This document shows positions 7,010 through 31,846 of a stretch of DNA of 32,000 nt, piece by piece. The stretch lies in assembly GCA_040218445.1 (NCBI GenBank), contig JAVJRK010000017.1, positions 272,724 through 304,723 of the forward strand, in the 5' to 3' direction. The notes under the pieces were generated by a model, which worked only from the letters and a program-made list of their open reading frames with translations, was not told the DNA's origin and did not search any database. A program made the position numbers and the translations under genes. Each line of letters opens with the position of its first letter. Position 1 is the first letter of the stretch. This stretch comes from Rhodospirillales bacterium. GTDB lineage: Bacteria > Pseudomonadota > Alphaproteobacteria > Rhodospirillales > Casp-alpha2.

Positions 7010-7047
7010 CGTCTCGCCGTCATCTTAATATCAAGCGGATGCCCGAC

Positions 7048-7563
7048 CTAGTCGTCGTAGGCCATCAGCGAACTGAACGGCACGTCCAGCTTGTCCCGGC
7101 CCTTGAGGAAGGTCAGTTCGATCAAGCAGGTCGCGCCGACAACTTCGGCGCCGGCACTGCGCAGCAGATCGATGGAGGCCGCCATGGTTCCGCCGGTCGC
7201 CATAAGGTCATCCATGACGACGACGCGTTGGCCCGGTTTCACTGCGTCCTTTTGGATTTCGAGGGTGTCCGTACCGTATTCCAGGGCGTATTCGTGGGAA
7301 ATGGTTTCGCCGGGAAGCTTGCCTTGCTTGCGGACCATGATGAACCCGCATCCGAGCTTGGATGCCAGGGGGGCGGCGGTCAAAAAACCGCGCGATTCGA
7401 TGCCGGCAAGAAGATCAGGCTGGTAGCCCGAAACAATTTTGGCGAGACGCCCGAGCGCCACTTGCCAAGCGTCGGGATGCGCCAGCAAGGTTGAAATATC
7501 GTAAAACAGGATGCCTGGAATGGGAAAATCGGGAATGCCCCGGATGTGTTCCTTCAGGTCCAT
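7048..7563 (-). CDS. apt: Adenine phosphoribosyltransferase
   Basis: 171-aa [22 protein letters not shown]-terminus and PRPP-binding motif [13 protein letters not shown]. Confidence 0.95.
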
Positions 7564-7681
7564 ATGTTCCCCCTATGAATGATAATGATGCCGAGCAAAT
7601 TGCGGCGGCATCCTATTGGATTGACGTACAGCCTTGCAATCGCGTCCTATGGGTAAATCGACTGTAAGGCTGGACGGTCAC

Positions 7682-9019: not shown

Positions 9020-9065
9020 TCCTGGAACGGTGCCGGGTGCGGATGGAATGAACGGGGGCAGGAAT

Positions 9066-10031
9066 ATGAGCGTAAGGCGGGCAGTTGTCGCAGTGGCGGT
9101 AGCGTTGTCAGTGGCGGGGTATGCCGGCGGGCTTGCCGCGAACGAGACGATCACGATCGGAACCGGCAGTTCGAAAGGGGTGTACAGCACCCTGGGACGC
9201 GCCATATGCGCCGTTATAAAGGCCAGGCGCGCGGGGTATGACTGCAAGGTGGCAACCACGAAGGGGTCCATCGATAACATTATCGGGTTGAAAAAGGGCA
9301 CCTTCGATATCGGTATCGTTCAATCGGACGTTCAGTACCATGCCGTTAACGGAACCGGCGTGTTCGCGAATGTCGGCGCGCTCTCTGAAATGCGGTCCAT
9401 GTTTTCCGCTCATACGGAGGCGTTAAGCCTTCTGGCAAGGGGCGATGCGAATATCGCCGATTGGGAACACCTGGCGGGATCGCGCCTGAATATCGGAAAA
9501 TTGAAATCCGGCACGAATTCAACTTTGCGGCTGATGATCGAAGCGCAGGGGTGGGCGACAAAAGACTTCCGTGCGGTCACGACAATGGACCTTGCACAAC
9601 AACAGTCGGCATTTTGTGATGGTGGGATCGATGTGGCGTCATTCCTTGCCGGGCACCCAAATTCAGCGGTGACCCACCTAATAACGAAATGTGGGGCATC
9701 GTTAATTACAGTCAAAGGCGCCGTGGTCGACCGGTTGATCGCCAGCAATCCGTATTATGTCGAAGCGATGATCCCCAGAGCGATCTACTTCCGCATGCCG
9801 ACGGACACACCGACGATCGGCTTGTTGGCCACGGTCATGACGACCGCGAAAAGTGATTCAAGGATGATTTATCAGGTGACCCGGTCGGTATTCGAGAACC
9901 TGGGTTACATTCGTTCCCGTACGCCGTCTTTCGGCAGCTTGTATGCCTTAGAAATGGCGCGCAAGGGCATGACCGCACCGCGCCACCCAGGGGCCCTGGA
10001 ATACCTGCGCGAAGTCGGCCGTGTTCGCTGA
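9066..10031 (+). CDS. TAXI-family TRAP transporter solute receptor (paralog 1)
   Basis: Start chosen at MSVRRAVVAVAVALSVAG (signal peptide, AGGAA RBS) rather than the track start at 8892, which overlaps the aminotransferase. ITIGTGSSKGVYSTLG and GIVQSDVQYHA are TAXI hallmarks. Confidence 0.85.
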   Translation: MSVRRAVVAVAVALSVAGYAGGLAANETITIGTGSSKGVYSTLGRAICAVIKARRAGYDCKVATTKGSIDNIIGLKKGTFDIGIVQSDVQYHAVNGTGVFANVGALSEMRSMFSAHTEALSLLARGDANIADWEHLAGSRLNIGKLKSGTNSTLRLMIEAQGWATKDFRAVTTMDLAQQQSAFCDGGIDVASFLAGHPNSAVTHLITKCGASLITVKGAVVDRLIASNPYYVEAMIPRAIYFRMPTDTPTIGLLATVMTTAKSDSRMIYQVTRSVFENLGYIRSRTPSFGSLYALEMARKGMTAPRHPGALEYLREVGRVR

Positions 10032-18965: not shown

Positions 18966-19010
18966 TGGTCGGAGTGAGAGGATTTGAACCTCCGACCCCC
19001 GCCTCCCGAA
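18966..19010 (-). repeat. Direct repeat A: 45-nt copy of the tRNA-Pro 3' half (distal att site of the island array)
   Basis: tggtcggagtgagaggatTtgaacctccgacccccgcctcccgaa matches 31770..31814 with a single mismatch (T for C in the T-loop). It covers the CCA end through the anticodon loop. Confidence 0.92.
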
Positions 19011-19217
19011 ACATGCCGATGGAAAATAACCTTTTGATAGAAAGTAATTAAACCTTACAAATTAAGCGATATCAGGGTGGTATTCTGCTTATGTTCATGG
19101 GGAAATGGTTCAATTGAACCGCCAAGCACCGTTTTCTCGCGTCGCGCTCAGGGGGAACGACAGACCGGAATGGGAGCTATAAAGACAAGAAGTGATCATC
19201 GAAACCAGCCGTTGAGG

Positions 19218-21065
19218 TTAGGAGGCGAAATCCGCGCCTTGTTCCATCGCTGTAATTACCTGTAGCGCTTCGGGCGCAATTTCCTCTAATTGCATTTCTC
19301 TCGCAATTGCCAAGGCAGAGAAAGACACACCGAACTCTTTTTTTGACCATCCAGACAAGGTTGAAACGATGTCCTTGCCCGGACAGATGCTCATGACGCC
19401 AATTGAAGAGGCTTCTGCGCCTTTCACTATTTTGCGTGCTTTCTTGTTCGCATCAGCCGACCCTTGTCGGTCTCTAGCGCCTATCTCATTTGAAATTTGA
19501 TCAAACACATCGGTCTGCATTGCTTCGCAGATTTCCGAAATTTTTTTCTCAACAGCTGCGATATTGGGAAAAGTAGATTTGGTTCGCTGTTCGATGACTC
19601 GTGAGATTGCAGGTGCTGAAAGTACGTAATTCTCGATTTCTTTTCGGTTCCAAATATGTAGGTTCAATCCATTGCCACGTGCTTCTTTTTTGATTTTTTC
19701 GTTTTCTGCCTCCGGGCGGTAATCGGAGTCTAAGATGCAGTACGCTTTAATTGATTGATCGCCAGCGTTCTTTAGTCCAATCGCTGCACCAACCGCATGT
19801 TTCCAATTTCCAAACCCGTTGATTGATATATGTGGGATGGCGTTGAAGCTAGTTGGGCTATCCGGAAAAATCTTTTCATGAAGGGCCGTAAGAAAATCAA
19901 AATCGTCACCTTCTATAAAGACGCATTTCCGCGCTGACCAAAGGCGGGTGAGCTGCAGATTGTGAGCTCCGCCAATATTATCAATCACGCTTTGGACGGC
20001 TGGAATGTTCTCTGCAAATTTTGAGTCTGAACTATCTTTATCGACCACGAGAACGTCGTCCGGATTCACCTCTGCCAAAATCTCTGTTGAGTGGGTCGCG
20101 ACCAGAACTTGGGCAAAATAACCTTCCACAAGATGAAAGAGTCGGCGCTGGAGATCTGGGTGGAGATAGGCATCAGGCTCATCGAGCACCACGATCGATT
20201 GCCTTGCGCATCTCGCCAAAAACCAACAGGTCTGTAGCCATGCCTGAAGACCACTTCCTACCCATCCGACCTCAGCGACGAACGCGCCATCTCTAACCAA
20301 AAGATTCAATTGCGGCGGTGTGTGAGTTGTTCGGTCAATTGAGTCTATTCGAAGGTGCGGCCAGGATGACTCTGCGAGCGCGACAAAAGAATCGTAGAAA
20401 GTCGGGATAAATCCGTCCTCTTCTTCGTTGTCTTCATTTATCTGTATTCGGCTTTGATCTATGTTTCCGCCTAAATAATAAATTTGGTTTCTAAAATGCA
20501 GAGAGGATAAGCGCGTATTAATATTTGACCTGACGTAATCGGAGTTCCTTATCTCTTCCGATAGCCTCAGCCTCCCAATGGGAGGCAGAACATTGATTGT
20601 GTCTTGCAAAGCGTTTGAGGCTTGGGATGCTGTTAGAATCCGACTATTTCCTTTTCTCAATACGGCAAAAATATCTTCTGTTTCTGAATTGAGATAAATT
20701 TTTATTATTACTTTATTTGAGAATTTTGCAGTAATAATTGCTGGTGGTTCTCCGTACCTGTAGCAAAGGTTCCGGAATTCGAACTCTAATCCTCTAAGAG
20801 ATGGGGATATCCCATTGCGTGCAGATGGAGTTTTCAGCCAATCGGGCGGTGAAACGAAACGTGTCCTCGGCGCACGCAAGGCAACAATGGACACCAGCGT
20901 TAGTGCTTCGATGATTGTCGATTTTCCAGCGTTGTTACGTCCTACAATTACAGATGTTTGTCTCAGCGGGATTTTGTGCTTCACGAAACCCCGATAATTA
21001 TCAAGTTCCAGTTCAACAATCATCGGTAACTCGCTTCGTCTCGAAAAATCAAAATTGTCCGACAC
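19218..21065 (-). CDS. OLD-family / PARIS-like ABC-type ATPase fused to a Toprim (DUF4435-like) nuclease domain
   Basis: 615-aa ORF. Walker A GRNNAGKST, signature-like GSGLQAWLQ, Walker B IVVLDEPDAYLHP, H-loop VATHS. The C-terminal domain has VFIEGDDFDFL and ILDSDY...WNRKEIENYVL, a Toprim-type acidic motif arrangement. The region is much AT-richer than its flanks (sampled lines about 33-45 percent GC). Confidence 0.8.
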   Translation of the reverse strand: MSDNFDFSRRSELPMIVELELDNYRGFVKHKIPLRQTSVIVGRNNAGKSTIIEALTLVSIVALRAPRTRFVSPPDWLKTPSARNGISPSLRGLEFEFRNLCYRYGEPPAIITAKFSNKVIIKIYLNSETEDIFAVLRKGNSRILTASQASNALQDTINVLPPIGRLRLSEEIRNSDYVRSNINTRLSSLHFRNQIYYLGGNIDQSRIQINEDNEEEDGFIPTFYDSFVALAESSWPHLRIDSIDRTTHTPPQLNLLVRDGAFVAEVGWVGSGLQAWLQTCWFLARCARQSIVVLDEPDAYLHPDLQRRLFHLVEGYFAQVLVATHSTEILAEVNPDDVLVVDKDSSDSKFAENIPAVQSVIDNIGGAHNLQLTRLWSARKCVFIEGDDFDFLTALHEKIFPDSPTSFNAIPHISINGFGNWKHAVGAAIGLKNAGDQSIKAYCILDSDYRPEAENEKIKKEARGNGLNLHIWNRKEIENYVLSAPAISRVIEQRTKSTFPNIAAVEKKISEICEAMQTDVFDQISNEIGARDRQGSADANKKARKIVKGAEASSIGVMSICPGKDIVSTLSGWSKKEFGVSFSALAIAREMQLEEIAPEALQVITAMEQGADFAS

Positions 21066-21208
21066 AATTGAGTGGTCAAATCAAGCGAATGGCGGAATAT
21101 CCATGATTGCGCCTGACAATACGCTGCACTTATTACGCTATCACAAAGAATGGTCCCGCGTATACGCGACGTTTTCGCAATACGAACGCCTCGATAGTTC
21201 AATTCTTC

Positions 21209-21709
21209 ACGAGTGAATTTGCCAATCGAACAGACGTGGACCTGGACGACGGCGTGTGGCAGGCGAGGGCCGGCGACACGAAGTCGGGCGAGGAGAAGCT
21301 GGTGCCGCTGTCGAGACAGGCGGTGTCCCTGCTGCGGGGGCTGTCGGGGGAGGGCGACTACGTGTTCGGCGGTGAGACGCCATTTGTCACCCATAAGGTG
21401 AAGCATAATAAGCTCTACAAGGCAGCGGGCCGCGTGAAGGACGACTCCAGCCACCCGGACGGCGGTTGGACGCCGCACGACTTCCGGCGCACCCAGCGGA
21501 CGCGGCTCGCCCGTGTGTCCGGCGTGAAGAGCCACGTCGCCGACATGCTGGCCGGCCGCCGTGGCAACGAGCAACAGGGCGTGTCGGGCATCTACAATCA
21601 GCACGACTACCTGGAGGAGATGCGGCACGCCGCCCAGGCCTGGGCCGACTGGCTGGAGGTGGTCGTCAACGACGAAGAGACGGTGGTTCCGATGGAGGCG
21701 GCGCAGTGA
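21209..21709 (+). pseudogene. Tyrosine integrase, 5'-truncated (C-terminal catalytic half only; P4-like family)
   Basis: Integrase-like sequence begins about ...DVDLDDGVWQ..TKSGEEKLVPLSRQAV and includes HDFRRT (HxxR) and the terminal GIYNQHDYLEEMRHAAQAWADWL (catalytic Tyr region). The arm-binding and core-binding domains are absent. An abrupt GC shift at about 21200-21230 marks the junction with the nuclease cassette. The left coordinate is approximate. Confidence 0.8.
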
Positions 21710-22080
21710 CGAAGAAGACGGAAAAGCACACGCGGGTCCGGGCCCGCGTCGTCAAGCTGGACGACGACCTGCGCCAGCGGGGGATTGAGACGAACCTCTC
21801 GCGGGTGGCCGGGATGATGGACGACAACCCCAACGACGAGGTCGTCGCGGCGCTGGCGTCAACCACGACCGACACGTTGGAGGACCTGCACAGGCGCTAC
21901 GAGGATAAGCTGATCGGCATAGCGCGGGTCCAGGAGTTGGCGGGCATCAAGAAGTCGGAGGTGGACCGCCGAGTTCGCGCCGGAACCTTCCCCGCGCCGA
22001 AGGTCGCGGGGGACGGAAAGGACCGCAAGTGGTCCCACATAGAAGTAATGGCCTGGGTCACCGAACAGGCGCGGCGGTGA
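21706..22080 (+). CDS. AlpA-family (HTH_17) phage-type transcriptional regulator / excisionase-like protein
   Basis: GTG at 21706 overlaps the integrase stop (GTGA). The C-terminus IGIARVQELAGIKKSEVDRRVRAGTFPAPKVAGDGKDRKWSHIEVMAWV matches the AlpA pattern. Confidence 0.7.
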   Translation: MTKKTEKHTRVRARVVKLDDDLRQRGIETNLSRVAGMMDDNPNDEVVAALASTTTDTLEDLHRRYEDKLIGIARVQELAGIKKSEVDRRVRAGTFPAPKVAGDGKDRKWSHIEVMAWVTEQARR

Positions 22081-22297
22081 CAATTTGATCAGGTACGCTT
22101 AGACCTGAACCACTCCCAGTGCCATCTGACGTATTCATTGTCGAGATCGTGTTTGAGGGCAATCGTCTTGCCGTCAAGAGGGTCGCCAGGAACCTTCGAC
22201 TTGATCTTAAAACTACCTGCGCCTCGCTGCAGGCGAAGCATCCTTCTCGAACGCCTACTCTGACCACAGGACGGGCGACATTACGATTTGTTCCGAG

Positions 22298-22762
22298 GTG
22301 TTTGTGAAGCTATCAGCCGCCGGTAAGAAGGGTGCGTTGTCCGCGATAATGTATCACGAGCTGGGTCACACCCTCCTGAACCTCTGGGGGTTGCCGGGGT
22401 TTGACAACGAGGAGACGGTGGACGAGTTCGCCGTCGTGATGCTTTACCTGGACGGGAGGCAGGAGTACGCGCTCGAGTTCATGGAGTACTTCGAGAAAAA
22501 TAATCCGTGGATAGAGGCTAGGATGATCATCGAGCGCGGGGGGCGGCACCCAATCTCCTCCCAGCGCATCCGAAACGTGAGGCGGATACTCAGCAATCCG
22601 GGGCCAGTGATTGAGCGATGGAACCGGCTGTTGTACCCGCATATGACTGTCGCTGGTCTGGAGAACGTGCTGAAGACGGCGCCGCGATATGCCGACCGGG
22701 CATTGGCCGAAAAGTTGATCGCCGAGAAGTCTGCGCGTCGAGAACCACCGCCTCAAAATTAG
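22298..22762 (+). CDS. HExxH metallopeptidase-like protein (DUF4344-like), probably N-terminally truncated
   Basis: 154-aa ORF with a GTG start. It has YHELGH followed by a DNEETVDEFAV acidic motif, as I recall for DUF4344 putative metallopeptidases. It is shorter than I expect for that family. Confidence 0.55.
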   Translation: MFVKLSAAGKKGALSAIMYHELGHTLLNLWGLPGFDNEETVDEFAVVMLYLDGRQEYALEFMEYFEKNNPWIEARMIIERGGRHPISSQRIRNVRRILSNPGPVIERWNRLLYPHMTVAGLENVLKTAPRYADRALAEKLIAEKSARREPPPQN

Positions 22763-22817
22763 GTCAAGGACCTGTACTAGGACCTGGGCGGTTTGTTCTC
22801 CTGGGCCCAGAAAGTAA

Positions 22818-22853
22818 AAGCCCCTTAACTCGTTGAGTTAAGGGGCTTCTTTT
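22818..22853. terminator. Strong hairpin adjacent to direct repeat B
   Basis: AAGCCCCTTAACTC-gtt-GAGTTAAGGGGCTT 14-bp perfect stem. CTTTT follows on the plus strand, and on the minus strand it sits right after the tRNA-fragment 3' end. Confidence 0.7.
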
Positions 22854-22898
22854 GGTCGGAGTGAGAGGATTCGAACCTCCGACCCCCGCCTCCCGAAG
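22853..22898 (-). repeat. Direct repeat B: 46-nt exact copy of the tRNA-Pro 3' half (junction between the two islands)
   Basis: tggtcggagtgagaggattcgaacctccgacccccgcctcccgaag is identical to 31770..31815. The sequences diverge after that point. Confidence 0.95.
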
Positions 22899-22920
22899 GC
22901 GTGAACAAGCCATTTTCCCT

Positions 22921-23047
22921 TGCTTACACGAACTTTCTTTCTCTTACTAACACATTGCAAAATCGTCATAAATGCCTTACTTTTGAGGCGGTGGTTAAGC
23001 GCGAATTTACCCTGATTTACTCTTATTTGCTTACATCGTGCTTACAT
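22921..23047 (+). promoter_or_regulatory. Putative integrase arm-type binding sites, left arm (TGCTTACAY repeats)
   Basis: TGCTTACAC at 22921-22929; TGCTTACAT at 23028-23036 and 23039-23047 (11-bp phasing). Weaker TTAC-containing copies lie between. The same 9-mer pair recurs at the other end of the element (31703-31722). Confidence 0.6.
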
Positions 23048-23106
23048 GGGAATGGCCCCTTACCCCTGCTTTACGCGAACAGGGGTCAGAATTTGGAGGC
23101 GATGCA

Positions 23107-24402
23107 ATGCCGAAAATCTCAAAAAGCACCGTGGATTCCACGCATCCGAAAGGCGCTCAATTCTTCGTTTGGGACGACGTGTTGAAGGGATTCGGCCTTC
23201 GCGTCACACCGGCGGGCGTGAAAAGTTTCGTCTTCCAATACAGAACGCCGGAAGGGCGGACACGCCGGGCCACGATTGCCAAGGTCGGCACCGTCACACC
23301 GGCAAAAGCCCGCGAACTTGCCGAGGATATGGCCGCAACCGTCAAGCATGGCGGCGACCCGCTAGGCGACAAATCCGCCGCGCGTAATTCGATCACCGTT
23401 GCAGAACTGTTGGACGCTTATTTGAAGTCCGCCGCGTTCGCCGCGAAAGCGGAAAGCACGCGGGCGACCGACAAGGGCCGGATTGAACGGCACCTTCGCC
23501 CGCTTCTGGGGAAGATGTATGCACATAAACTCGGAAGCGACGACGTGCAGCGCGCCTTCAATCAGATCGTCGCCGGCAAGACGGCGGGCCACATCAAAAC
23601 CGGCAAACGCGGCCTTGCCCGAGTGACGGGGGGGCATGGGGCGGCCCGTGCTTCGGTGAGGCTTTTGCGGGCGATTTATAATTGGGCGGCAGACGCGATG
23701 GCGCTCAAGGTTGATAACCCCTGCGCCAAGATAAAGATGGGGCGCGACGGCGAGCGCGATGTGATTTTGGATTCGCCCGAACAGTACGAGCGCCTGTTCC
23801 GTACCCTTGAAAAAATGGAAGCCGAGAAACGCATCCGCGCCCCCGTAGCGGATGCAATCCGCCTGATCGCCATGACAGGCGCGCGCCGTTCCGAAGTTAT
23901 CGGCCTACGTTGGAAACACGTTGACCTGAAAGGCGGGCGGATCGTTCTTCCCGCGACTTCACACAAGGCGGGCCACAAAACCGGCAAGGCCCGAATCATT
24001 CCGTTGGCGACGGCGGCGCAAGCGATCATTTCCCGCCAGCCGGAAGGCAAGCCGGACGATTTGGTTTTCCGCCCGGCGCGTGGCGACAAGCCGATGCACA
24101 TTAATAAGCCGTGGCGTGACGTTCGCGCCGAAGCCGACTTGCCGGAAGGGATCGGCCTTCACGGCCTCCGGCATTCCGTCGCGTCGCTGATGGCGATGGC
24201 CGGTGCTGGGGCAAGTGAGATTCAGGCAGTCACGGGCCATCGTGATCTTAGGATGGTGCAACGCTACGTTCACTTCGCCGACAACGCCCGCGCCGCGCTG
24301 GCCGAACGTGCCGCCGCGCCGGCTTTGGCAGGCTTGGCTGCTGCGGCTGGCGAACAGGGCGGCGAAGTGGTGACGCTGGCGGATAAGAAGGGGCGGGGAT
24401 AA
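23107..24402 (+). CDS. int: Tyrosine-type site-specific integrase with N-terminal arm-binding (DUF4102-like) domain
   Basis: Start at MPKISKS (ATG 23107, GGAGG RBS). N-terminus FVWDDVLKGFGLRVTPAGVKSFVFQYR. Catalytic residues in TGARRSEVIGLRW, HGLRHSVAS, GHRDLRMVQRYVH. Confidence 0.93.
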   Translation: MPKISKSTVDSTHPKGAQFFVWDDVLKGFGLRVTPAGVKSFVFQYRTPEGRTRRATIAKVGTVTPAKARELAEDMAATVKHGGDPLGDKSAARNSITVAELLDAYLKSAAFAAKAESTRATDKGRIERHLRPLLGKMYAHKLGSDDVQRAFNQIVAGKTAGHIKTGKRGLARVTGGHGAARASVRLLRAIYNWAADAMALKVDNPCAKIKMGRDGERDVILDSPEQYERLFRTLEKMEAEKRIRAPVADAIRLIAMTGARRSEVIGLRWKHVDLKGGRIVLPATSHKAGHKTGKARIIPLATAAQAIISRQPEGKPDDLVFRPARGDKPMHINKPWRDVRAEADLPEGIGLHGLRHSVASLMAMAGAGASEIQAVTGHRDLRMVQRYVHFADNARAALAERAAAPALAGLAAAAGEQGGEVVTLADKKGRG

Positions 24403-24875
24403 TGGCGCGGGACATTATCAATAACTTGAACTGGCTATCATATCTTCCGCGCTTAGTCCGCATCGAAAAGACGGCGCGATGGATATTGGAACAGCCCGAC
24501 GACTCGCGCCATGAAATTGCCAGAGAAATTCTCAAAACCGCCGCGCAAGTTCGTCGCGATCACAAACACGGCTGGGACACTTCGAATTTTGTAGATACCC
24601 TCAATCAACTTTGCGGCCGGGCGGATGCAGAGATTTTCGCGCCGTATGTTAAGGAATCCGCCAAGCGCCGCGAGCGGTTCCGCGATCAAGTTGCGGAACC
24701 TCGCAACAAGCAAGCACGCGCCGAAGGAAACGCACGACGCGCTGAATGGCAAAGCGCCGCCGATGAAATTTGGTCACGCCATCCTGAGTGGACTGCCTCC
24801 GACGTGGCACGCCGGATTGCCAAGGATCGTGGCGGCGACTGGAACACAATCCGCCGCAGGATCGCCCGCAAGTAA
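24402..24875 (+). CDS. Hypothetical protein, translationally coupled to int (TAATG overlap)
   Basis: 157-aa ORF with coding-like codon usage. The C-terminal basic segment (WTASDVARRIAKDRGGDWNTIRRRIARK) could be a small HTH. I recognise no family. Confidence 0.55.
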   Translation: MARDIINNLNWLSYLPRLVRIEKTARWILEQPDDSRHEIAREILKTAAQVRRDHKHGWDTSNFVDTLNQLCGRADAEIFAPYVKESAKRRERFRDQVAEPRNKQARAEGNARRAEWQSAADEIWSRHPEWTASDVARRIAKDRGGDWNTIRRRIARK

Positions 24876-24956
24876 ATAGTTGTCACGGCCTTCTAAGCCG
24901 TGACAGCCGATACCGCTTACCTTTCGAACCTAGACGCAACTCGAAAGGTAATAGCG

Positions 24957-25181
24957 ATGACACCGGAATATTTCACGCGAGCCGAAGCCGCCGAATACCT
25001 TACATCGCGCGGTCTGCCCGTATCCAAATGCACCCTTCAAAAATGGGCGACGGTCGGCGGCGGTCCCGTCTATCGGATTTTCGGTATCCGCGCGCTCTAC
25101 ACGCCCGCCGACTTGGACGATTGGGCCGAAGAAAAGCTGAGCGCCCCGCGCCGGTCGACTTCCGAAACGGTCGCCGCGTGA
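24957..25181 (+). CDS. Excisionase/MerR-type helix-turn-helix DNA-binding protein (HTH_17-like)
   Basis: Start at ATG 24957 inside track ORF 24900..25181. FTRAEAAEYLTSRGLPVSKCTLQKWATVGGGPVYRIFGIRALYTPADLDDWA matches the excisionase-family pattern. Confidence 0.75.
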   Translation: MTPEYFTRAEAAEYLTSRGLPVSKCTLQKWATVGGGPVYRIFGIRALYTPADLDDWAEEKLSAPRRSTSETVAA

Positions 25182-25309
25182 TGACGCCCGCGACTTTGAA
25201 CGAGGCCCTTCGCCAAGCGCAGCTTCGCGTCCGCGCCGCCCGCGCCGAACTGCGTGCTGCCGAAGTCGAACTGCGCCGCGTGCGGCGCGAACACAGAGAG
25301 GTGGCATGA
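25181..25309 (+). CDS. Small Arg/Ala-rich helical protein (42 aa), hypothetical
   Basis: ATG at 25181 overlaps the upstream stop (TGATG), and its own stop overlaps the next ATG (ATGA). MTPATLNEALRQAQLRVRAARAELRAAEVELRRVRREHREVA. Supported mainly by the coupling pattern. Confidence 0.4.
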   Translation: MTPATLNEALRQAQLRVRAARAELRAAEVELRRVRREHREVA

Positions 25310-25617
25310 TGCGCCCCGAACTCCAAACCATCGCCGCGAAACGCGCTGACGGCATTGCTACGGCGGCGGGATCGGCACGCCGCATGCTGGCGCTGATCGA
25401 ACACCTGGTCGCGGCCTCACAATGCCCGTTGGAGCGGCGGGCGTTGCGACTCCAAGCCGTGGCCATCCGGCGGAACTTGATCGCGATCATGAAAGCGCCG
25501 TCACCGTTCGCGCGACCCGTGACCATCCCGGACGACGTGACCATGACGCCGCCCGTGGACGGGTCGCGCGTTCCGCGCCGTGTCGCCGTGCAACCGATTA
25601 GCCGAGGAGCACCTTGA
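25306..25617 (+). CDS. Hypothetical protein (103 aa)
   Basis: ATGA overlap with the upstream ORF and high third-position GC. No recognisable motif. Confidence 0.55.
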   Translation: MMRPELQTIAAKRADGIATAAGSARRMLALIEHLVAASQCPLERRALRLQAVAIRRNLIAIMKAPSPFARPVTIPDDVTMTPPVDGSRVPRRVAVQPISRGAP

Positions 25618-26099
25618 CGATGGATATGCACCAAACAGAAACCGCCGCGCCCGGGCAGGGACACGGCGGCGGGGTAACTGGAAAATCGAGCGTTTCCAAT
25701 CATACCCCAAAAACCCCGAATTTTCAACTTCTCGACGCCGCCTTGTCCGAGATTGACGCGGCGCGCGGGCGCGATGCGACGAAGGCCGACGCGGCTTACC
25801 ACAAGCGAGTGGCGGACGACCTTTCGAACTGGCTGGCCGACGATCTTCTGCAAGCCCGCCGTCGCATCCCTAACGAACCGAAAGGCCGGCGCGTGCCGCC
25901 GACGATGGGCGACTTGCGAGGCATGGTGGACGTGCAGCGCCGCCTAGCTGCGGCGCGAACGGAGGCGGAATTATGGGACGCGGCCACATGGGCGGCGCTC
26001 AATACCAACGATCCGAAATGGGAACGGCTTGTGATGGAACTGTCCCGCGCCGAAAGCCATGTCGCGGAACTTGAACGAGAGGCGCAACCGTGGAAATGA
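25614..26099 (+). CDS. Hypothetical protein (about 160 aa)
   Basis: The track start is TTG 25614; ATG 25620, 3 nt after the upstream stop, is an alternative. Coding-like codon usage. No recognisable motif. Confidence 0.55.
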   Translation: MTMDMHQTETAAPGQGHGGGVTGKSSVSNHTPKTPNFQLLDAALSEIDAARGRDATKADAAYHKRVADDLSNWLADDLLQARRRIPNEPKGRRVPPTMGDLRGMVDVQRRLAAARTEAELWDAATWAALNTNDPKWERLVMELSRAESHVAELEREAQPWK

Positions 26100-27616
26100 A
26101 TAATCAATCAACGCTACGCGCCGCCGGGTATCGAGGCCCGACCGTTGCGCCGACAATCCCCGTAGCCATCGGGCCGGGGCGGACTGCCGAGGCGGTCGAG
26201 TCCGTACTAGCGACATTGCGCGAGCGGCCCGACGTGTTCGACCTGGGCGGCGCTATCGTGCATATCCACAATGGCGCAACGGTGCCGCTCGACCGTCACG
26301 CGCTGGCGCATTTTCTCGGAAGCGCTGTGCGTTTCGTGCGCTTCAAACAGGATGGCACCGCGAGCGCCGACGACCCGCCGCAACGCCTCGTTGACCAGCT
26401 ACTATCGCTGGGCGCGGTGCGCGGGCTCAAGCCGTTGGACGCGGTGACGACCATTCCGACCCTTCGACCCGACGGGAGCGTTTTGGACTCGCCCGGATAC
26501 GATGCGGCATCCCGGTTGCTCTACGTGGGCGACGGCGAGTCGAGCGTGCCGGAACGTCCATCGGCGGACGAAGTGCGGTCGGCTTATGAGACGGCACTAT
26601 TTCCGTTCCGCGAATTTCCCTTCGTGGGGCCGGTCGATTGGGCCGTGATGCTTTCCGCGATCCTGACCGCCGTTATCCGACCCGCACTCCCGACGGCGCC
26701 GGCCTTCGCCTTCGACGCGCCGTCGGTTGGAAGCGGCAAGACGTTGCAGGCGTCATGTGTCGCGGCGATAGCGAGCGGCGAACGTCCCGAACCGTGGCCC
26801 CCGGTTGCGGCGCGCGACGATGAGGAAATAAGAAAGCGCCTGTTCGCCGCGCTTCGCACCGGGGCGCGTGCAATCGTATGGGACAACCTCGCCGGCACCC
26901 TCGACTCCCCGAGCCTCGCCGCGTTCCTGACCGGGCCGACGTTCCGCGACCGCATCCTCGGAAAATCGGAAAGCCTGGCCCTTCCAAACCGAGCGGTATT
27001 CCTGCTGACCGGCAACAACGTGAGCCTCGCGGGTGACATGCCGCGGCGTGTCCTTACGTGTCGCATCGATCCAAAATGCGAGCGCCCGTTCGCCCGGCAA
27101 TTCGACCTCGACCCCTTGGCGCACGTCATGGCGCATCGCGTCGATATAGCCACAGCGGCGCTGGCCATTGTGCGCGGTTGGCTTACCAGCGGTGCGGCAC
27201 CGCGCCCCGGCCGCGTGGCCAGCTTTGAAGCATGGGACTCGTTCGTGCGCCAGCCGGTCGCGTGGATCATGGGCGTTGACCCGCTCGACGCGATCAACAC
27301 GGGCGCGGAAGCGGATCCAGAACGGGAAGCCCTGGGCGATCTTTTGGAAGCGTTGCGGATGTGTTTCGGGGATGCGGGGTTTACCGCCGCCGACGTGGCC
27401 GACGCTATCCGCAAAGGCGCGGGACCGTTCGGTGACGAAGCGCAACGGGCCGTCGCCGCCGCCGTGGCCGACGTGGCCGGGCGTAACGATCCGAGCGCCA
27501 AGAGCATCGGGCGCATCCTTAATTTCCGACGTGGGCGGATCGTCAACGGCATGAAGCTGGAATGCGAGCCGACGCGCGACGGAAAGCGTTGGTTTGCGAC
27601 TTTGGAGAGGGTTTAG
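26096..27616 (+). CDS. SF3-like P-loop NTPase / putative replicative helicase of the element
   Basis: ATG 26096 overlaps the upstream stop (ATGA); the track start is GTG 26090. Walker A FDAPSVGSGKT, Walker B-like RAIVWDNLAG, and a motif-C-like VFLLTGNNVSL with conserved Asn. No obvious primase motifs. Confidence 0.65.
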   Translation: MNNQSTLRAAGYRGPTVAPTIPVAIGPGRTAEAVESVLATLRERPDVFDLGGAIVHIHNGATVPLDRHALAHFLGSAVRFVRFKQDGTASADDPPQRLVDQLLSLGAVRGLKPLDAVTTIPTLRPDGSVLDSPGYDAASRLLYVGDGESSVPERPSADEVRSAYETALFPFREFPFVGPVDWAVMLSAILTAVIRPALPTAPAFAFDAPSVGSGKTLQASCVAAIASGERPEPWPPVAARDDEEIRKRLFAALRTGARAIVWDNLAGTLDSPSLAAFLTGPTFRDRILGKSESLALPNRAVFLLTGNNVSLAGDMPRRVLTCRIDPKCERPFARQFDLDPLAHVMAHRVDIATAALAIVRGWLTSGAAPRPGRVASFEAWDSFVRQPVAWIMGVDPLDAINTGAEADPEREALGDLLEALRMCFGDAGFTAADVADAIRKGAGPFGDEAQRAVAAAVADVAGRNDPSAKSIGRILNFRRGRIVNGMKLECEPTRDGKRWFATLERV

Positions 27617-27623
27617 AAAAATG

Positions 27624-27760
27624 CCAAAGTCGCACTTAATATCTAATTATTTCAATGGTTTGTGGGTTTGCTGGTTTAAATACACTACCCCATACGCGAG
27701 GCGTTCCAGAATCAAATACAAATGGGCCGAAACCAAAGTCGCAAAGTCGCAAAGTCGCAC
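27624..27760. repeat. Iteron / AT-rich ori-like region immediately downstream of the helicase gene
   Basis: CAAAGTCGCAC at 27625-27635 and 27750-27760. CAAAGTCG tandem x3 at 27734-27757. A second tandem 8-bp series, GGTTTGTG/GGTTTGCT/GGTTTAAA, at 27657-27680. An AT-rich spacer lies between them. Confidence 0.55.
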
Positions 27761-27909
27761 GCGCCCCCGTGAAAATATAGCCCGCAGGGCCAGGGGGGAG
27801 GGTTTGGAAGTCCCAAAGGGGCTCCCCGTAGGACCGGCTGCGGTACTCAAATTTTATCGCCCGCAGTGTTCGCAAAAACGCGATTCCATAATTTTGGAGA
27901 ATTATAAAA

Positions 27910-28395
27910 ATGACGAAACGTAAACCGCCCGATCTTCGATTACTCGAAGGCAACCCCGGCAAACGCCCGATAAAGAAACGTGGCGTGACGCCGACCGGCG
28001 ATGCAGTTGCGCCCGTGTGGTTATCCGAAGGTGCGGCGGCGGTGTGGTCGCGCGTGGTCGACGCCATGCCGGGCGTGTTCAAGGCGACGGACGCGGAAAT
28101 CCTGACGGCCTATTGCTGCGCCGCCGACCAACACCAGCGCGCAACGCTGGCCCTTGCAATCGAAGGCCCGATCTTGACCGGCCCGCGCGGACGGCAATCC
28201 AAAAACCCTTGGCTGGCCGTCCAGAAGGACGCTGCCAACGCGATTGAACGCCTGGGCCGTCGCCTCGGCCTCGACCCGACCAGCCGTGAACACCTTCCGC
28301 AACCCGCACCGCAACCGGCCTCCAGCAAATTCGCCGGGCTGGTCGGCGCGGGCACTTCACCAACAGAGAAAGGAACGAACGATGACGACGACTGA
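27910..28395 (+). CDS. terS: Phage terminase small subunit, P27 family
   Basis: 161-aa ORF. LLEGNPGKRP...P.WLSEGAAAVWSRV...TDAEILTAYCCA...SKNPWLAVQKDAANAIERLGRRLGLDPTSR follows the P27-family TerS pattern. GGAGA RBS. Confidence 0.85.
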   Translation: MTKRKPPDLRLLEGNPGKRPIKKRGVTPTGDAVAPVWLSEGAAAVWSRVVDAMPGVFKATDAEILTAYCCAADQHQRATLALAIEGPILTGPRGRQSKNPWLAVQKDAANAIERLGRRLGLDPTSREHLPQPAPQPASSKFAGLVGAGTSPTEKGTNDDDD

Positions 28396-28615
28396 CGCGA
28401 AGCATCAAGCCAACGCTGCGACCGCAATCGCACTGGGCATGGAGGCCGCAGCCGACCAAGGCGTACCCGACGCCGTGATTATGAATGAAGTTGTGAAGAT
28501 CGCACTCGGGATCATCGGTGCTGCAAACGGTGGCCCGGATGCGGTGCCGGACACGCTGCGACGGCTGGCCGATGAGATCGAGGCGAACCCGAACGAGCTG
28601 AAATCACTTAACTAA
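28382..28615 (+). CDS. Small acidic helical protein (77 aa), hypothetical
   Basis: ATG 28382 with an AAAGGAA RBS; overlaps the terS 3' end by 14 nt. MTTTDAKHQANAATAIALGMEAAADQG... No family recognised. Confidence 0.5.
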   Translation: MTTTDAKHQANAATAIALGMEAAADQGVPDAVIMNEVVKIALGIIGAANGGPDAVPDTLRRLADEIEANPNELKSLN

Positions 28616-28775
28616 TCGGCACTGTGTGACTGTCACATTCTGCGTAGCTGCTTAATATGACAGTACTAGGACGCAGCGCCCTAAGTAAAAAATTGTTGCG
28701 TTATTTACACGGGGCGTTAGTATTTACTAGTTCCCTGGCGCTGCCATGAGGCATCGTCGGGGGGCGCCGCAACGT

Positions 28776-28855
28776 CACGCCGTGCGCTGGCGTTGCCCTA
28801 ATAAAGCGGCACGCCGTGCGCTGCCGGACCCGACTCGATAGCACGCCGTGCGCTG
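28776..28855 (+). repeat. Three phased copies of a 14-bp palindrome-containing repeat upstream of the capsid gene
   Basis: CACGCCGTGCGCTG at 28776-28789, 28810-28823 and 28842-28855 (spacing 34 and 32 bp). Copies 2 and 3 contain the palindrome GCACG-C-CGTGC. A degenerate fourth copy lies near 28896. Confidence 0.85.
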
Positions 28856-28949
28856 CGTCGATGGGCGGATCAATCCCAACACTTTGTACAACGCGCACCC
28901 GTGCGCCCGCTGGGCCGCGTGGTGCAACAGACAGAAAGGGCATTATGTA

Positions 28950-30149
28950 ATGTCTATCATTCAGAAAAAGCGCGGCATTCTGGCCGTGCGCGCCGAAGCC
29001 TCCGATGTGATGGCGGAGATTCAGGAACTCAACGCGGCCCATGCCGATTGGCGTGACCGCGAAAGCGCCAAAGTCAAAAAGCTGGAAGCTAATCTCGTTG
29101 AAATGGAACAGCGCCTCGCAGAACGCGACCTCATGCCGCGTGGCGGCGCTGGGCAATCTTCCAGCATGGCGAGCGCGGTCAGCCTCGCGGCTGATCTCAA
29201 CAAGGACGGCACCTTCCAGCAGTTCGCGGCCGGTAGCATCAAAGAATGCGGCGTGAAGGTCTCGGCAACCAAACTCTTGAACGTCCAGGCCAACGTCATT
29301 CGCTATGACTCCGGCGATCTCGCGGTGCGCGAGAATGTCGGCGTGATCGAACCGGCCCGCCGCCGTCGTTGGCTTCGTGATCGCCTTACGACCGTGACGA
29401 CGACCGGCGGCACGGTCGAGTTTTCGCGCGAGGCCAGCGGCACCACGAACAACGCGGACGTTGTTGGCGCTGGCTCTCCCTTCGTGCACGAGGGCGCCGA
29501 CAAGCCAGAGAGCGTTATCGAGTGGGATTTGCTCGACCTCAAGGTGCCGACGATTGCCACCTATGTTCGCGCGAGCCGTCAAATTCTGTCGGACGTTGGC
29601 GAACTTGGCCGCATCATCGACCGCTATCTCCGGCATTTCCTCGAATTGAAGCTGGAACAGCAGATCATCGCTGGCGCCGGCACCGGGGCTCAGATGAAGG
29701 GGCTTACGCACGCCGACAACCGCGTGGCCTTCACGCCGACCTCGGGGGATACCGGGATCGAGTCGATTTCGCGGGCGCTTGGCACCCTCGCGAACTCTTA
29801 TGAGATCCAGGCGAACCTGGTGATCCTTAACCCGGTCGACTATCGCGCCATGCAGCGCACCCGCGCGGTGACCGACGGTCAGTTCTTGTGGGGCGATCCG
29901 AACGGCGCGAATTCCGAACAGGTCTGGGCGGTGGACATTCACCAAACCCCGGCCATGACGCAGGGATCGTTCGCGATCACCGATACCGAACAGGTCGGGA
30001 CGTTCCGGCTTCGCGAGGACGCCCAAATTATGACGGGCTACACGGGGAACCAGTTTACCCAGAACCTCGTGACCATCCTTGGTGAACTTCGGGCGTTGCT
30101 GACGGTCGAGCGCCCGACGGCGACCATGTACGGCTCGTTGACCCTCTAA
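28950..30149 (+). CDS. Phage major capsid protein, HK97 family, with N-terminal delta (scaffold) domain
   Basis: Start at MSIIQKK (ATG 28950, AAAGGG RBS) inside track ORF 28848..30149. N-terminal coiled coil (EIQELNAAHADWRDRESAKVKKLEANLVEMEQRLAE). C-terminus ...NLVTILGELRALLTVERPTATMYGSL is typical of HK97-fold MCPs. Confidence 0.9.
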   Translation: MSIIQKKRGILAVRAEASDVMAEIQELNAAHADWRDRESAKVKKLEANLVEMEQRLAERDLMPRGGAGQSSSMASAVSLAADLNKDGTFQQFAAGSIKECGVKVSATKLLNVQANVIRYDSGDLAVRENVGVIEPARRRRWLRDRLTTVTTTGGTVEFSREASGTTNNADVVGAGSPFVHEGADKPESVIEWDLLDLKVPTIATYVRASRQILSDVGELGRIIDRYLRHFLELKLEQQIIAGAGTGAQMKGLTHADNRVAFTPTSGDTGIESISRALGTLANSYEIQANLVILNPVDYRAMQRTRAVTDGQFLWGDPNGANSEQVWAVDIHQTPAMTQGSFAITDTEQVGTFRLREDAQIMTGYTGNQFTQNLVTILGELRALLTVERPTATMYGSLTL

Positions 30150-30271
30150 GCCTCCCAGCGAGGCGCGGCGCACGGCCCCGCCTCGCATCCGGCCGCGCCG
30201 CCCGTGTGGGTTTCTCCTATGGCCCAGCGGGCGGCGCGCCGGTCTCTTTCCGACAGGGAGACCGCCTCGCT

Positions 30272-30562
30272 ATGGCCAAACGACATTCAACCGAATACCG
30301 ACGCCAAGTCGTCGCCGCATACGACCAGGCCCGCCGCGACGGTGCGCCCGTTGGCAAGGCCGCGTTGCTGGCCAATGCGGATAGCGTGGACGGCCCGCGG
30401 CAGGTTGCAAAGAGGCGGGCGTGTTTGCGGTGCCGCAGGGATTTTAGATCAACGTGGAGCGGGGAGCGGATTTGCGGCGCGTGTAAGTCGGGCGAGCATT
30501 ACGACGGACTGCCGGCGGGATGGGGCGCTACGGCGACCTTGGGCGTGGCGCACCAGGGTTAG
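30272..30562 (+). CDS. Small zinc-ribbon protein, hypothetical
   Basis: Start at MAKRHSTEYRR (ATG 30272). CxxC...CxxC motif (CLRCRRDFRSTWSGERICGACK). No family recognised. Confidence 0.5.
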   Translation: MAKRHSTEYRRQVVAAYDQARRDGAPVGKAALLANADSVDGPRQVAKRRACLRCRRDFRSTWSGERICGACKSGEHYDGLPAGWGATATLGVAHQG

Positions 30563-30639
30563 GCGACGACCGCACACCTCAACGTTACAAGCTGGAATCT
30601 TGAACCTATACTCCCTTACATCGACTAAGGGAGGCGGGG

Positions 30640-31296
30640 ATGCCTGACGCTGGGGCAACAATTATAGCGGTGACTCTGCTTGTTTTGATCGTGGTGCTGG
30701 CGATGCGCCGCCGGACAGAAAGGCAAGGCGAGGAAGAAAAGAATCAAAATGCCCGCGATTTGCGACCGATATTGCCGGAAAGATTTGTCGTATTCGATTT
30801 TGAAACTACTGGCTTGGATTGTAACAAACATGAAATCCTTGAAATTGGCGCGATCAGCGTTAACCGGGACGGCGTCGATCACAAGACGTTCCAATGCTTG
30901 GTGATCCCGCAGAAACGTATTAGCCGAAAGATCACTGAGATCACGGGAATTGACAAAAAGATGGTGACAGAGAGCGGTCAGCCTCTCGCGGATGCGATTT
31001 CCCAGTTTCGAGACTTTATCGGCGACCTCCCATTGGTCGCTTATAATGCTGAATTCGATATGGGGTTCCTTCACGCCGCAGAAAAGTCACTTGGCCTTCC
31101 AAAGACAAAGAACGAAGTGTCTTGCGCATTAGAACTTGCACGACGGGCGTGGCCAAGCCGCAGGTCTTACAAGCTGTCTGAATTAGCGAAAGATGGCCGG
31201 TTGGACGCATCAAATGCGCACCGTGCTTTGGATGATTGCAAGATGACCATGATTGTATATGCGGCGGCTTCATCAATTACTGGCAGGCGTCGTTAA
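30640..31296 (+). CDS. DEDDh (DnaQ/epsilon-like) 3'-5' exonuclease with N-terminal transmembrane anchor
   Basis: 218-aa ORF. TM helix ATIIAVTLLVLIVVLAM followed by RRRTERQ. Exo I FVVFDFETTGLD, Exo II LVAYNAEFDMGFL, Exo III HRALDDCKM. The region is AT-richer than the rest of the island. Confidence 0.85.
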   Translation: MPDAGATIIAVTLLVLIVVLAMRRRTERQGEEEKNQNARDLRPILPERFVVFDFETTGLDCNKHEILEIGAISVNRDGVDHKTFQCLVIPQKRISRKITEITGIDKKMVTESGQPLADAISQFRDFIGDLPLVAYNAEFDMGFLHAAEKSLGLPKTKNEVSCALELARRAWPSRRSYKLSELAKDGRLDASNAHRALDDCKMTMIVYAAASSITGRRR

Positions 31297-31356
31297 ACAG
31301 GGCCTACCTTAACAGCTTCCCCAACAGCCGCCCCGTGATCCTCTCGGACCATCGGC

Positions 31357-31632
31357 TTAAAGCAGGTTGCCGAATCTGAGACTGACAAACAACGATCCCA
31401 AACTAACGACCAGTGACAAACCGGCGATCCCGATCGCAAGGAGGGTTGTCCTTTTCATATAGCGCCCGGTCAATTCGTTGTTCAGCACTTGAATGACGTT
31501 GGGGTTAGTCCAGTCTCCGTCATCCCTATTGTTCGCAACTAGAAACTCTTTGGTCCGGAAAGATAGTTCGGCCCTAATCGCCTTATCCGAAGCGAGCTCC
31601 AAAATCCGAATGGCATTTGGTTTTTCGCCCAT
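31357..31632 (-). CDS. Small tail-anchored membrane protein (91 aa), hypothetical
   Basis: A soluble N-terminal part of about 60 aa, then a single C-terminal TM helix (TTLLAIGIAGLSLVVSLGSLFVSL). Convergent with the exonuclease gene and has the same AT-rich composition. Confidence 0.5.
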   Translation of the reverse strand: MGEKPNAIRILELASDKAIRAELSFRTKEFLVANNRDDGDWTNPNVIQVLNNELTGRYMKRTTLLAIGIAGLSLVVSLGSLFVSLRFGNLL

Positions 31633-31702
31633 CGATCATCCCCCGTCATTTATAAGGCTGAAAACCCTACGCGCGCCGCACATGGCGAGTCCATGCACGC
31701 CC

Positions 31703-31722
31703 TGCTTACATGGCGCTTACAT
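31703..31722 (+). promoter_or_regulatory. Putative integrase arm-type binding sites, right arm
   Basis: TGCTTACAT at 31703-31711 and CGCTTACAT at 31714-31722. They have the same 11-bp phasing and the same orientation as the pair at 23028-23047. Confidence 0.6.
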
Positions 31723-31731
31723 GAATAAAAT

Positions 31732-31761
31732 AAGGGCCTAGGCGTTTCCGCCTAAGCCCTT
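31732..31761. terminator. Hairpin terminator directly downstream of tRNA-Pro (minus strand), also closing the island on the plus strand
   Basis: AAGGGCCTAGGCG-tttc-CGCCTAAGCCCTT 13-bp stem with one mismatch. On the minus strand it is followed by a TTATTTTATT run, 8 nt after the tRNA CCA end. Confidence 0.65.
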
Positions 31762-31769
31762 GATTTTAT

Positions 31770-31815
31770 TGGTCGGAGTGAGAGGATTCGAACCTCCGAC
31801 CCCCGCCTCCCGAAG
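31770..31815 (-). repeat. Direct repeat C: the 3' half of the intact tRNA-Pro gene (att core of the array)
   Basis: Identical to 22853..22898 and 44/45 identical to 18966..19010. Confidence 0.95.
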
Positions 31816-31846
31816 ACGGTGCTCTACCAGGCTGAGCTACACTCCG
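31770..31846 (-). tRNA. tRNA-Pro (anticodon CGG), 77 nt, CCA encoded
   Basis: The reverse complement folds by hand into a cloverleaf. Acceptor CGGAGTG/CACTCCG; D arm GCTC-AGCCTGGTA-GAGC; anticodon arm CCGTC-TTCGGGA-GGCGG (anticodon CGG); variable loop GGGTC; T arm GGAGG-TTCGAAT-CCTCT; then A-CCA. Confidence 0.95.

Follow-up and report, generated by a model that had tools for sequence, protein, structure and literature searches.

A putative membrane-anchored DEDDh exonuclease at the att-proximal end of a phage-satellite-like island in a Rhodospirillales bacterium

The exonuclease gene and its product

The window analysed here, a stretch of 32,000 nucleotides (nt) of DNA from a Rhodospirillales bacterium (assembly GCA_040218445.1, contig JAVJRK010000017.1, positions 272,724 to 304,723), carries a phage-satellite-like island at a tRNA-Pro gene, and the tRNA-proximal end of this island holds a gene for a DEDDh (DnaQ/PolC-exo-like) 3'-5' exonuclease that is predicted to be tethered to the inner membrane. 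The gene lies at 30640-31296 on the + strand, encodes 218 amino acids and matches the Pfam family RNase_T (PF00929) over the full profile, positions 1-164, with an E-value of 3.1e-32. It faces a convergent gene for a tail-anchored protein of 91 amino acids (31357-31632, - strand), and a preliminary description of this DNA had suggested that the two genes could form a defence module. A consensus scan places a sigma-70-like promoter, GTTACA-17 nt-TATACT, upstream of the exonuclease gene (30584-30612, + strand), and both hexamers are identical in a related locus, L001. Direct reading of the sequence also gives a ribosome-binding site, GGAGG (30630-30634, + strand), 5 nt before the ATG, which supports the start at 30640; the predicted transmembrane (TM) helix at the N-terminus therefore belongs to the exonuclease protein.

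The catalytic domain is canonical. As the preliminary description had noted, the protein has all three Exo motifs, whose catalytic residues show no variation across 50 aligned homologues: D53/E55 (DxE), N136/D140 (NAxFD) and H194/D199 (HxxxxD). F139 of Exo II is likewise invariant, Exo III is of the His type and not of the Tyr type, and the residues C162, R168, W171 and P172 are invariant features specific to this family. The protein is laid out as a TM helix at about residues 6-22, a basic stretch RRRTERQ, a flexible linker (37-47) and the catalytic domain (48-214). The AlphaFold2 model, with a mean predicted local distance difference test score (pLDDT) of 91.7, is divided in the same way: residues 4-36 form a long helix, the linker (37-47) has low confidence, and 48-214 fold into a compact, confident domain. 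Using Foldseek, the model was matched to the DnaQ domain of S. thermophilus (8h2f/8h18) with an E-value of 1.9e-17 and a target-normalised TM-score of 0.90, and further fold matches include the DinG exonuclease, the PolC exonuclease, the epsilon subunit of DNA polymerase III (Pol III) and Cas2-DEDDh. A sequence-profile search of the PDB gives the same relatives, the best being the PolC exonuclease 2p1j (6.6e-36), and places RNase T and ERI1 among the weaker matches. The substrate is likely DNA, because the closest solved relatives (2p1j, 8h18, 8fy9, the DinG exonuclease and Pol III epsilon) are without exception enzymes that work at DNA 3' ends.

While databases label members of this family only as 'DNA polymerase III subunit epsilon' or '3'-5' exonuclease', several features set the protein apart from the replicative subunit. 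Its scores fall far below the NCBIfam cut-offs for epsilon (79.5 vs 222.7 for TIGR01406; 83 vs 196 for NF004316), it stops about four residues past the catalytic domain and has no C-terminal alpha-binding segment as in DnaQ proper, and the genome encodes three other DEDDh paralogues with 26-34% identity to it. By these sequence criteria, the exonuclease is not the replicative Pol III epsilon subunit, and the epsilon annotation is misleading for the anchored family. Named defence systems do not account for it either, in line with the preliminary description, which had recognised no known system in the gene pair. PADLOC returns domain-level matches only, including PDC-S48 and the CRISPR-associated DEDDh; the PDC-S48 match covers profile positions 4-162 of 411, i.e., the DEDDh domain, and the protein gives no full-length match to the profiles of 411 and 512 positions. 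The exonuclease is not fused to Cas1 or Cas2, and neither adjacent gene is a cas gene. Its best PHROG match is PHROG 192, 'DNA polymerase exonuclease subunit', and a family-specific model was found in none of NCBIfam, PHROG and PADLOC.

A predicted N-terminal membrane anchor

The N-terminal helix followed by RRRTERQ, from which the preliminary description had derived a membrane-tethered enzyme, recurs throughout the family. A first homology search with the exonuclease returned 627 matches, and anchor statistics were drawn from the best 120, all of them 172-255 amino acids long, counting as TM-like a hydrophobic segment of at least 17 residues in the N-terminal region before the catalytic domain. 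Such a segment is found in 111 of the 120, so homologues lacking the helix, which could have spoken against the proposed tether, are a small minority. Across the family, the 12 residues that follow the segment have a net charge of +2.6, against -0.3 ahead of it, and 95% obey the positive-inside rule for an N-out/C-in orientation. The catalytic domain is accordingly predicted to be cytoplasmic and the exonuclease tethered to the inner membrane, as first proposed. A cleaved signal peptide is unlikely, because the segment has no basic n-region and the Arg/Lys clusters lie directly behind it. Taken at the level of the family, the predicted anchor is a hallmark and the defining feature of these exonucleases.

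The nine homologues among the best 120 that have no anchor are a mixed group, comprising one with a borderline hydrophobic segment, four apparently truncated gene calls, one degenerate sequence and three with an amphipathic N-terminus. The last of these form a minority type (P0091, P0114 and P0119; L015:5050-5715) that begins with a short amphipathic MGLLDxLFGKK, MSIIDKFKRLIFG, and has no TM helix. This amphipathic N-terminus may be an alternative membrane-binding device.

A foreign gene under purifying selection

The gene pair differs in base composition from its surroundings. The guanine-plus-cytosine (GC) content over the exonuclease and 91-amino-acid genes is 47-53% in 150-nt windows vs 60-71% in the adjacent upstream satellite DNA; the low GC content of both genes noted earlier is thus real relative to the flanks, but the values of 33-43% first given for it are too low. 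The 1.2-kb DNA carrying both genes was searched for in 40 related genomes, 15 of them from the same genus, and turned up in none. The closest homologue of the exonuclease, P0002 with 85% identity, comes from the metagenomic contig L001. This contig is homologous to the window from precisely the -35 hexamer onwards, across the exonuclease and the small open reading frame (ORF) region, up to a tRNA-Pro at the contig end. Instead of a satellite, L001 has ordinary-looking genes upstream (methyltransferase, NUDIX, PHO4). No satellite core lies within 8 kb upstream of the exonuclease there and the arm repeats are missing, and the GC content of the module is again below that of its flank.

Between the window and L001, the exonuclease gene shows a synonymous divergence (dS) of 0.78 and a ratio of nonsynonymous to synonymous divergence (dN/dS) of 0.11, with 0.054 in the catalytic domain and 0.36 in the N-terminal 46 codons. 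The gene is under strong purifying selection. With its putative own promoter, its deviating GC content and its location within the island, inside both att repeats and arm sites, it is foreign accessory cargo, i.e., a moron. The accessory slot next to the attachment site that had been suggested for the two genes is borne out, both of them lying inside the att repeats at the tRNA-Pro end.

Distribution and genomic contexts

In a survey of 16 distinct exonuclease loci, signs of mobile elements or defence were seen in eight, namely the window, L001 (a remnant next to a tRNA), L002/L003, L014, L015, L091, L097 and L098. In L002/L003, the exonuclease is flanked on one side by genes for integrase, capsid, portal, protease and DUF3987, and on the other by those for a PDC-S48-like DEDDh-BRCT protein and a PDC-S37/Hhe-like helicase. 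L014 has a neighbour related to the DEDDh-BRCT protein of L002. L015, from Nitrosospira, has the same layout as the window, with a primase zinc ribbon, an AAA_25 helicase, the exonuclease and a tRNA-Arg, whose 3' end is 178 nt away from the exonuclease with nothing between them. In L091, a PIN/Phd toxin-antitoxin pair, a group II intron and a transposase are found near the exonuclease, while L098 presents an integrase, an ORF of 221 amino acids and then the exonuclease. Finally, L097 runs from a tRNA-Asn through int, HTH_17, DUF3631 and an ORF resembling a small terminase (TerS) to the exonuclease; this TerS-like ORF has a weak BLAST match to the TerS of the window (40 amino acids, E 4e-5), and Pfam finds no family for it.

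Other loci show the gene in ordinary surroundings. In L092, L094, L095, L099 and L100, the exonuclease stands alone among ordinary chromosomal genes, MFS/Mfd, PQQ and GTP cyclohydrolase being among the contexts. An SNF2 helicase with DpdE/ZorD profile matches lies beside the exonuclease in L095, and this may be an ordinary RapA-like protein. For L011-L013, the neighbours were listed as ORFs without annotation. No neighbour is conserved across the exonuclease loci. The picture suggested by these contexts is of a patchy, horizontally moving single gene that would favour the att-proximal end of small integrase islands.

Two side observations concern the neighbourhoods. In L002 (8838-9701) and L014 (2015-2923), which are unrelated loci, a second DEDDh protein of 287-302 amino acids is encoded about 0.2-1.3 kb behind the anchored exonuclease. 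The two second proteins are 45% identical to each other, and the one in L002 has a weak BRCT-like C-terminus and a PDC-S48-like PADLOC match, with the PDC-S37/Hhe-like helicase after it. In the metagenomic locus L097, the exonuclease and its downstream neighbours are flanked by a 42-nt REP-like palindrome (TGTCCG...GGGTGGAAAACGGACATTAG) that is repeated five times (5818-9962).

Relation to described nucleases

Membrane-bound nucleases that act, or are proposed to act, on entering DNA include SNIPE and Mpr. SNIPE of E. coli (Nature 2026) is a membrane-bound nuclease with an N-out TM segment and a cytoplasmic nuclease domain that cleaves phage (lambda) DNA during injection; without its TM segment it is toxic, and the tether both guards against self-damage and puts the nuclease where the DNA enters (PMC13190303). 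The exonuclease resembles SNIPE in being a single-gene protein with an N-terminal single-pass TM segment, an N-out orientation and a cytoplasmic nuclease, a topology that is known for SNIPE and predicted for the exonuclease. However, SNIPE is a GIY-YIG endonuclease with a required DUF4041 domain that binds DNA and the tape measure, whereas the exonuclease is a 218-residue DEDDh protein with no extra domain and neither SNIPE domain in Pfam. Similarly, Mpr (multicopy phage resistance) of M. smegmatis is a 3'-5' DNA exonuclease anchored in the membrane. Defence against phage D29 depends on its activity, and its authors propose that it degrades entering phage DNA; its nuclease region has no similarity to known nucleases, and a C-terminal DUF4352 is essential for immunity (PMC12596739). 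In contrast, the exonuclease has a canonical DEDDh fold and no DUF4352 match in Pfam.

Among DEDDh enzymes, the PolC and DnaQ proofreading domains and Cas2-DnaQ (2p1j, 8h18, 8fy9, 1j53) share the fold and the catalytic residues, with matches of 6.6e-36 to 1e-31. They differ in that they are soluble and either belong to polymerases, helicases or Cas2 or bind to them, while the exonuclease is a stand-alone protein with a predicted membrane anchor. The TONDOs, ISG20-like bacterial DEDDh exonucleases, are also stand-alone proteins found in mobile elements and near defence genes, and provide nuclease-dependent defence against RNA phages (bioRxiv 2026, PMC13344964). Yet, they form an ISG20-related clade of RNA exonucleases with auxiliary domains and no mention of a TM anchor (PMC13344964), whereas the exonuclease groups with the DNA proofreading exonucleases. 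The exonuclease belongs to none of SNIPE, Mpr and the ISG20-like exonucleases, because it has no DUF4041, GIY-YIG or DUF4352 domain and groups with DNA proofreading domains.

A parallel in architecture comes from mammals. TREX1 is a mammalian DEDDh 3'-5' DNA exonuclease that is dimeric, is tethered to the endoplasmic reticulum by a single C-terminal TM helix and clears cytosolic DNA. Structures of TREX1 and TREX2 are among the fold matches of the exonuclease, but the identity is only 19-24%, and the anchor of TREX1 is C-terminal whereas that predicted here is N-terminal.

Since membrane-tethered nucleases guarding DNA entry are already known, the kind is not new. A TM-anchored DEDDh defence protein was not found described in the searched literature, and in that literature the DEDDh version, a minimal protein of 200 amino acids with hundreds of unannotated members, is undescribed.

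Proposed function of the anchored exonuclease

From the sequence, the models and the genomic contexts, we infer for the exonuclease a DNA substrate, the N-out membrane topology and a role in defence or exclusion, i.e., a single-gene, membrane-tethered 3'-5' DNA exonuclease acting on entering DNA, to which we give a probability of roughly 0.45. The gene would be a self-contained moron with its own promoter and ribosome-binding site at the att-proximal end of the phage-satellite-like island. Its product would be a single-pass inner-membrane protein with a very short N-terminus facing outwards and the DEDDh domain held in the cytoplasm by a linker of about 10-25 residues. There, it would most likely digest the 3' ends of DNA that appears at the inner face of the membrane, whether injected by a phage or arriving by transformation or conjugation. 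Held off the nucleoid by its tether, the exonuclease would protect both host and island, a logic shown experimentally for SNIPE and proposed for Mpr. An OLD/AriAB/GajA-like gene at the same tRNA-Pro hotspot also speaks for a role in defence.

It could further be speculated, with somewhat more reserve, that the anchored DEDDh proteins form a new family of single-gene immunity proteins, with hundreds of metagenomic members spread by small integrative satellites. These would destroy phage or other foreign DNA 3' end first as it crosses the inner membrane, and self would be told from non-self by location alone, as in SNIPE, with a minimal exonuclease of 200 amino acids and no sensing domain. Should the family defend cells, immunity by location would have its smallest case to date, a nuclease that is safe and specific only through its tie to the membrane. 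The family would then extend this principle from the GIY-YIG nuclease of SNIPE and the unclassified nuclease of Mpr to the very common DnaQ-type exonuclease fold, and would be further evidence of defence genes being carried by phage satellites in the slot next to att.

Several points weigh against a role in defence or exclusion. About half of the contexts have no mobile-element or defence marker within 6-7 kb, the gene being solitary (L092, L094, L099, L100). No close homologue (at least 45% identity) was found in phage or plasmid collections, where the best match is 37% identical and comes from C. difficile phages, and 185,579 species-representative genomes yielded five close members, from Novosphingobium, Gallionellales, Acidobacteriota, Stutzerimonas and Nitrosospira. 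The topology was called from hydropathy and charge. Furthermore, a proofreading-type 3'-5' exonuclease alone is a weak weapon against duplex DNA, and nothing in the exonuclease can be recognised as a domain for DNA binding or phage sensing, such as the DUF4041 of SNIPE or the DUF4352 of Mpr. As some DEDDh enzymes are RNases, the substrate could also be RNA.

The exonuclease could instead serve the island against DNA traffic, degrading incoming single-stranded transforming or conjugative DNA and thereby preventing deletion of the island by recombination or its displacement by competitors. DNases encoded by mobile elements that block natural transformation have been reported in Campylobacter and Vibrio, and would be a precedent. 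The closest relatives (Cas2-DnaQ, the DinG exonuclease and epsilon) trim single-stranded 3' ends, the tether would put the enzyme where uptake and transfer channels deliver DNA, and the gene recurs on small integrative islands. However, no sign of natural competence of the hosts was found in the window or in relatives, and conjugative single strands enter 5' end first and relaxase-bound. On balance, such a role appears unlikely.

The solitary chromosomal copies noted above raise another alternative, namely that the exonuclease processes nucleic acids in a housekeeping or niche role without genetic conflict, e.g., in membrane RNA or oligonucleotide turnover or in membrane-attached DNA repair, and merely hitch-hikes on islands. 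About half of the homologues stand alone among ordinary chromosomal genes, and RNases, among them RNase T and ERI1, also belong to the DEDDh superfamily. This is nevertheless rather improbable given how patchy the gene is, being absent from the 40 related genomes and scarce among the species representatives. The foreign GC content in both the window and L001, the repeated att-proximal position in integrase islands and the three DEDDh paralogues already in the genome also argue against it.

The neighbouring small gene

The 91-amino-acid protein (31357-31632, - strand) consists of two N-terminal helices and a motif, NELTGRYMKRTT, that runs into a C-terminal TM helix. In its AlphaFold2 model (pLDDT 80), two short helices precede a long helix at 44-88, and the single C-terminal TM helix proposed for the protein is thus retained in the model and conserved in the family. 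No match was found in Pfam, PHROG, PADLOC or NCBIfam. A word-indexed search returned only the protein itself, and relatives needed an exhaustive HMMER search, which gave 13 further matches among 1.84 billion representatives, most of them small proteins. By profile search, the family comprises about 26 clusters of 71-135 amino acids with a strongly conserved motif, IQMLxNELTGRF(V/M)KRTT, that abuts the C-terminal TM helix, and the part NELTGRF(V/M)KRTT is almost invariant (the 91-amino-acid protein and P0122-P0149). Elsewhere, a scan of viral contigs found nothing and a scan of metagenomes found one locus. Members of the family adjoin insertion sequence elements in L106 and L107, and lie downstream of a GyrB/ParE-type topoisomerase gene in Rhodospirillales (L108-L110).

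An antisense ORF on the + strand (31493-31741) was considered as the gene at this site. Substitutions relative to L001 over 31357-31741 number 19/19/46 by codon position, a pattern that cannot fix the strand, as the two overlapping ORFs share their wobble position. The minus-strand ORF 31357-31632 is the gene, because a conserved protein family was found for its product, and the antisense candidate was rejected on the same ground.

Whether the small protein belongs with the exonuclease bears on the two-gene superinfection-exclusion module that the preliminary description had envisaged, in which the 91-amino-acid protein might be a sensor, inhibitor or membrane adaptor of the exonuclease. The two genes are adjacent and convergent with a gap of 60 bp, both products have predicted membrane anchors, the low GC content is common to both, and the pair has been inherited jointly in the window and L001 across a dS of about 0.8. 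L001 is, however, the only other joint occurrence, and its small gene is disrupted: the ATG has become ATA, an in-frame TAA lies just upstream and Trp41 has changed from TGG to TGA, while the exonuclease there is intact and under purifying selection. The frame is otherwise preserved, as is the hydrophobic tail, and dN/dS is 0.26; the small ORF in L001 is a former gene that recently died. In six loci of the 91-amino-acid family, no DEDDh gene lies within 5-6 kb, tblastn detects no homologue of the 91-amino-acid protein, even as a pseudogene, in 18 other exonuclease loci, and L015 has the exonuclease-tRNA layout with nothing in between. Moreover, the genes are convergent and therefore separate transcription units, with no co-transcription. 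The two-gene module is unsupported because the genes do not co-occur elsewhere, the small gene in L001 is broken and the genes are convergent; we regard it as very unlikely, and the 91-amino-acid protein would be an independent neighbour and not a partner of the exonuclease.

Architecture of the island at tRNA-Pro

The integration target is a tRNA-Pro(CGG) gene at 31770-31846 (- strand), identified by ARAGORN. The 3' part of this gene is present three times in direct orientation (18971-18997, 22858-22884 and 31775-31801), and because of these three copies we conclude that two integrative elements lie in tandem at tRNA-Pro. The two right-hand copies extend to a 55-nt direct repeat: the tRNA-proximal att repeat in the 3' part of tRNA-Pro (31764-31818, + strand) is 95% identical to the distal satellite att repeat that adjoins the integrase gene (22847-22901, + strand). 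The region 30590-30630 had been considered as a third, degenerate att/tRNA remnant that would part an 'exo islet' from the satellite. This reading was dropped because the true third att copy is 18971-18997, and the region carries the sigma-70-like promoter kept in L001.

The right-hand element (22901-31770, about 8.9 kb) is phage-satellite-like, with genes for integrase, primase, TerS and capsid. It encodes a tyrosine integrase (23038-24402; Pfam Phage_integrase and Arm-DNA-bind_3), a primase/helicase-like protein (26090-27616; phrog_29234), a TerS (27910-28395), an HK97-type capsid protein (28848-30149) and an ORF of 118 amino acids (30206-30562) ahead of the exonuclease gene. GCTTACAY repeats occur five times in the window against 0.9 expected; three adjoin int, and a phased pair, GCTTACAT, at 31704-31722 (+ strand) forms an arm-type repeat pair in the P' arm of the satellite attP, a phased pair being also present beside int at 23029-23047. 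The attP arms bracket the whole element, and therefore both the exonuclease gene and the 91-amino-acid gene lie inside the excising element. A search for related satellites through the capsid protein in 95 family genomes found one weak relative, with 43% identity and too distant for a comparison of cargo.

The position of the exonuclease gene in a satellite beside capsid and TerS genes, together with its best match to PHROG 192, could hint at a role in the satellite life cycle, either in interfering with helper-phage replication or packaging or as a proofreading subunit for satellite replication, but this is highly improbable, as a membrane anchor is senseless for a replisome subunit, the gene has its own putative promoter and a GC content unlike the satellite core, the family is also present without any satellite, and L001 retains the exonuclease with no satellite core in the 8 kb upstream.

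Near the tRNA, an intrinsic terminator hairpin for tRNA-Pro (31732-31761, - strand), with a 13-bp stem followed by a T-run, is supplied by the island. Another hairpin, at 22812-22846, lies directly left of the displaced att copy that starts at 22847, and was presumably the terminator behind tRNA-Pro before the satellite inserted.

The second islet at the tRNA-Pro hotspot (18971-22901) lies between the att copies 18971-18997 and 22858-22884. Integrase was not found among its scanned ORFs. It encodes the OLD/AriAB/GajA-like protein mentioned above, an ATPase-Toprim protein of 615 amino acids (19218-21065, - strand) with AAA_21/AAA_15 and DUF4435 matches in Pfam and matches to the PADLOC profiles AriAB, AriA, AbiLi, GajA and Old. 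The GC content across the ATPase gene is 43-48%.

Between the exonuclease and 91-amino-acid genes, a 35-nt fragment (31303-31337, - strand) is 97% identical to G000:C1:185703-185737 on another contig of the genome. There, it matches the 3' end of a gene whose product ends in ...ATGRLLGKLFR and which lies about 1.1 kb from a second capsid homologue (G000:C1:186841-187938), itself 39% identical to the satellite capsid. The fragment is probably a recombination scar linking the two capsid-bearing elements of the genome.

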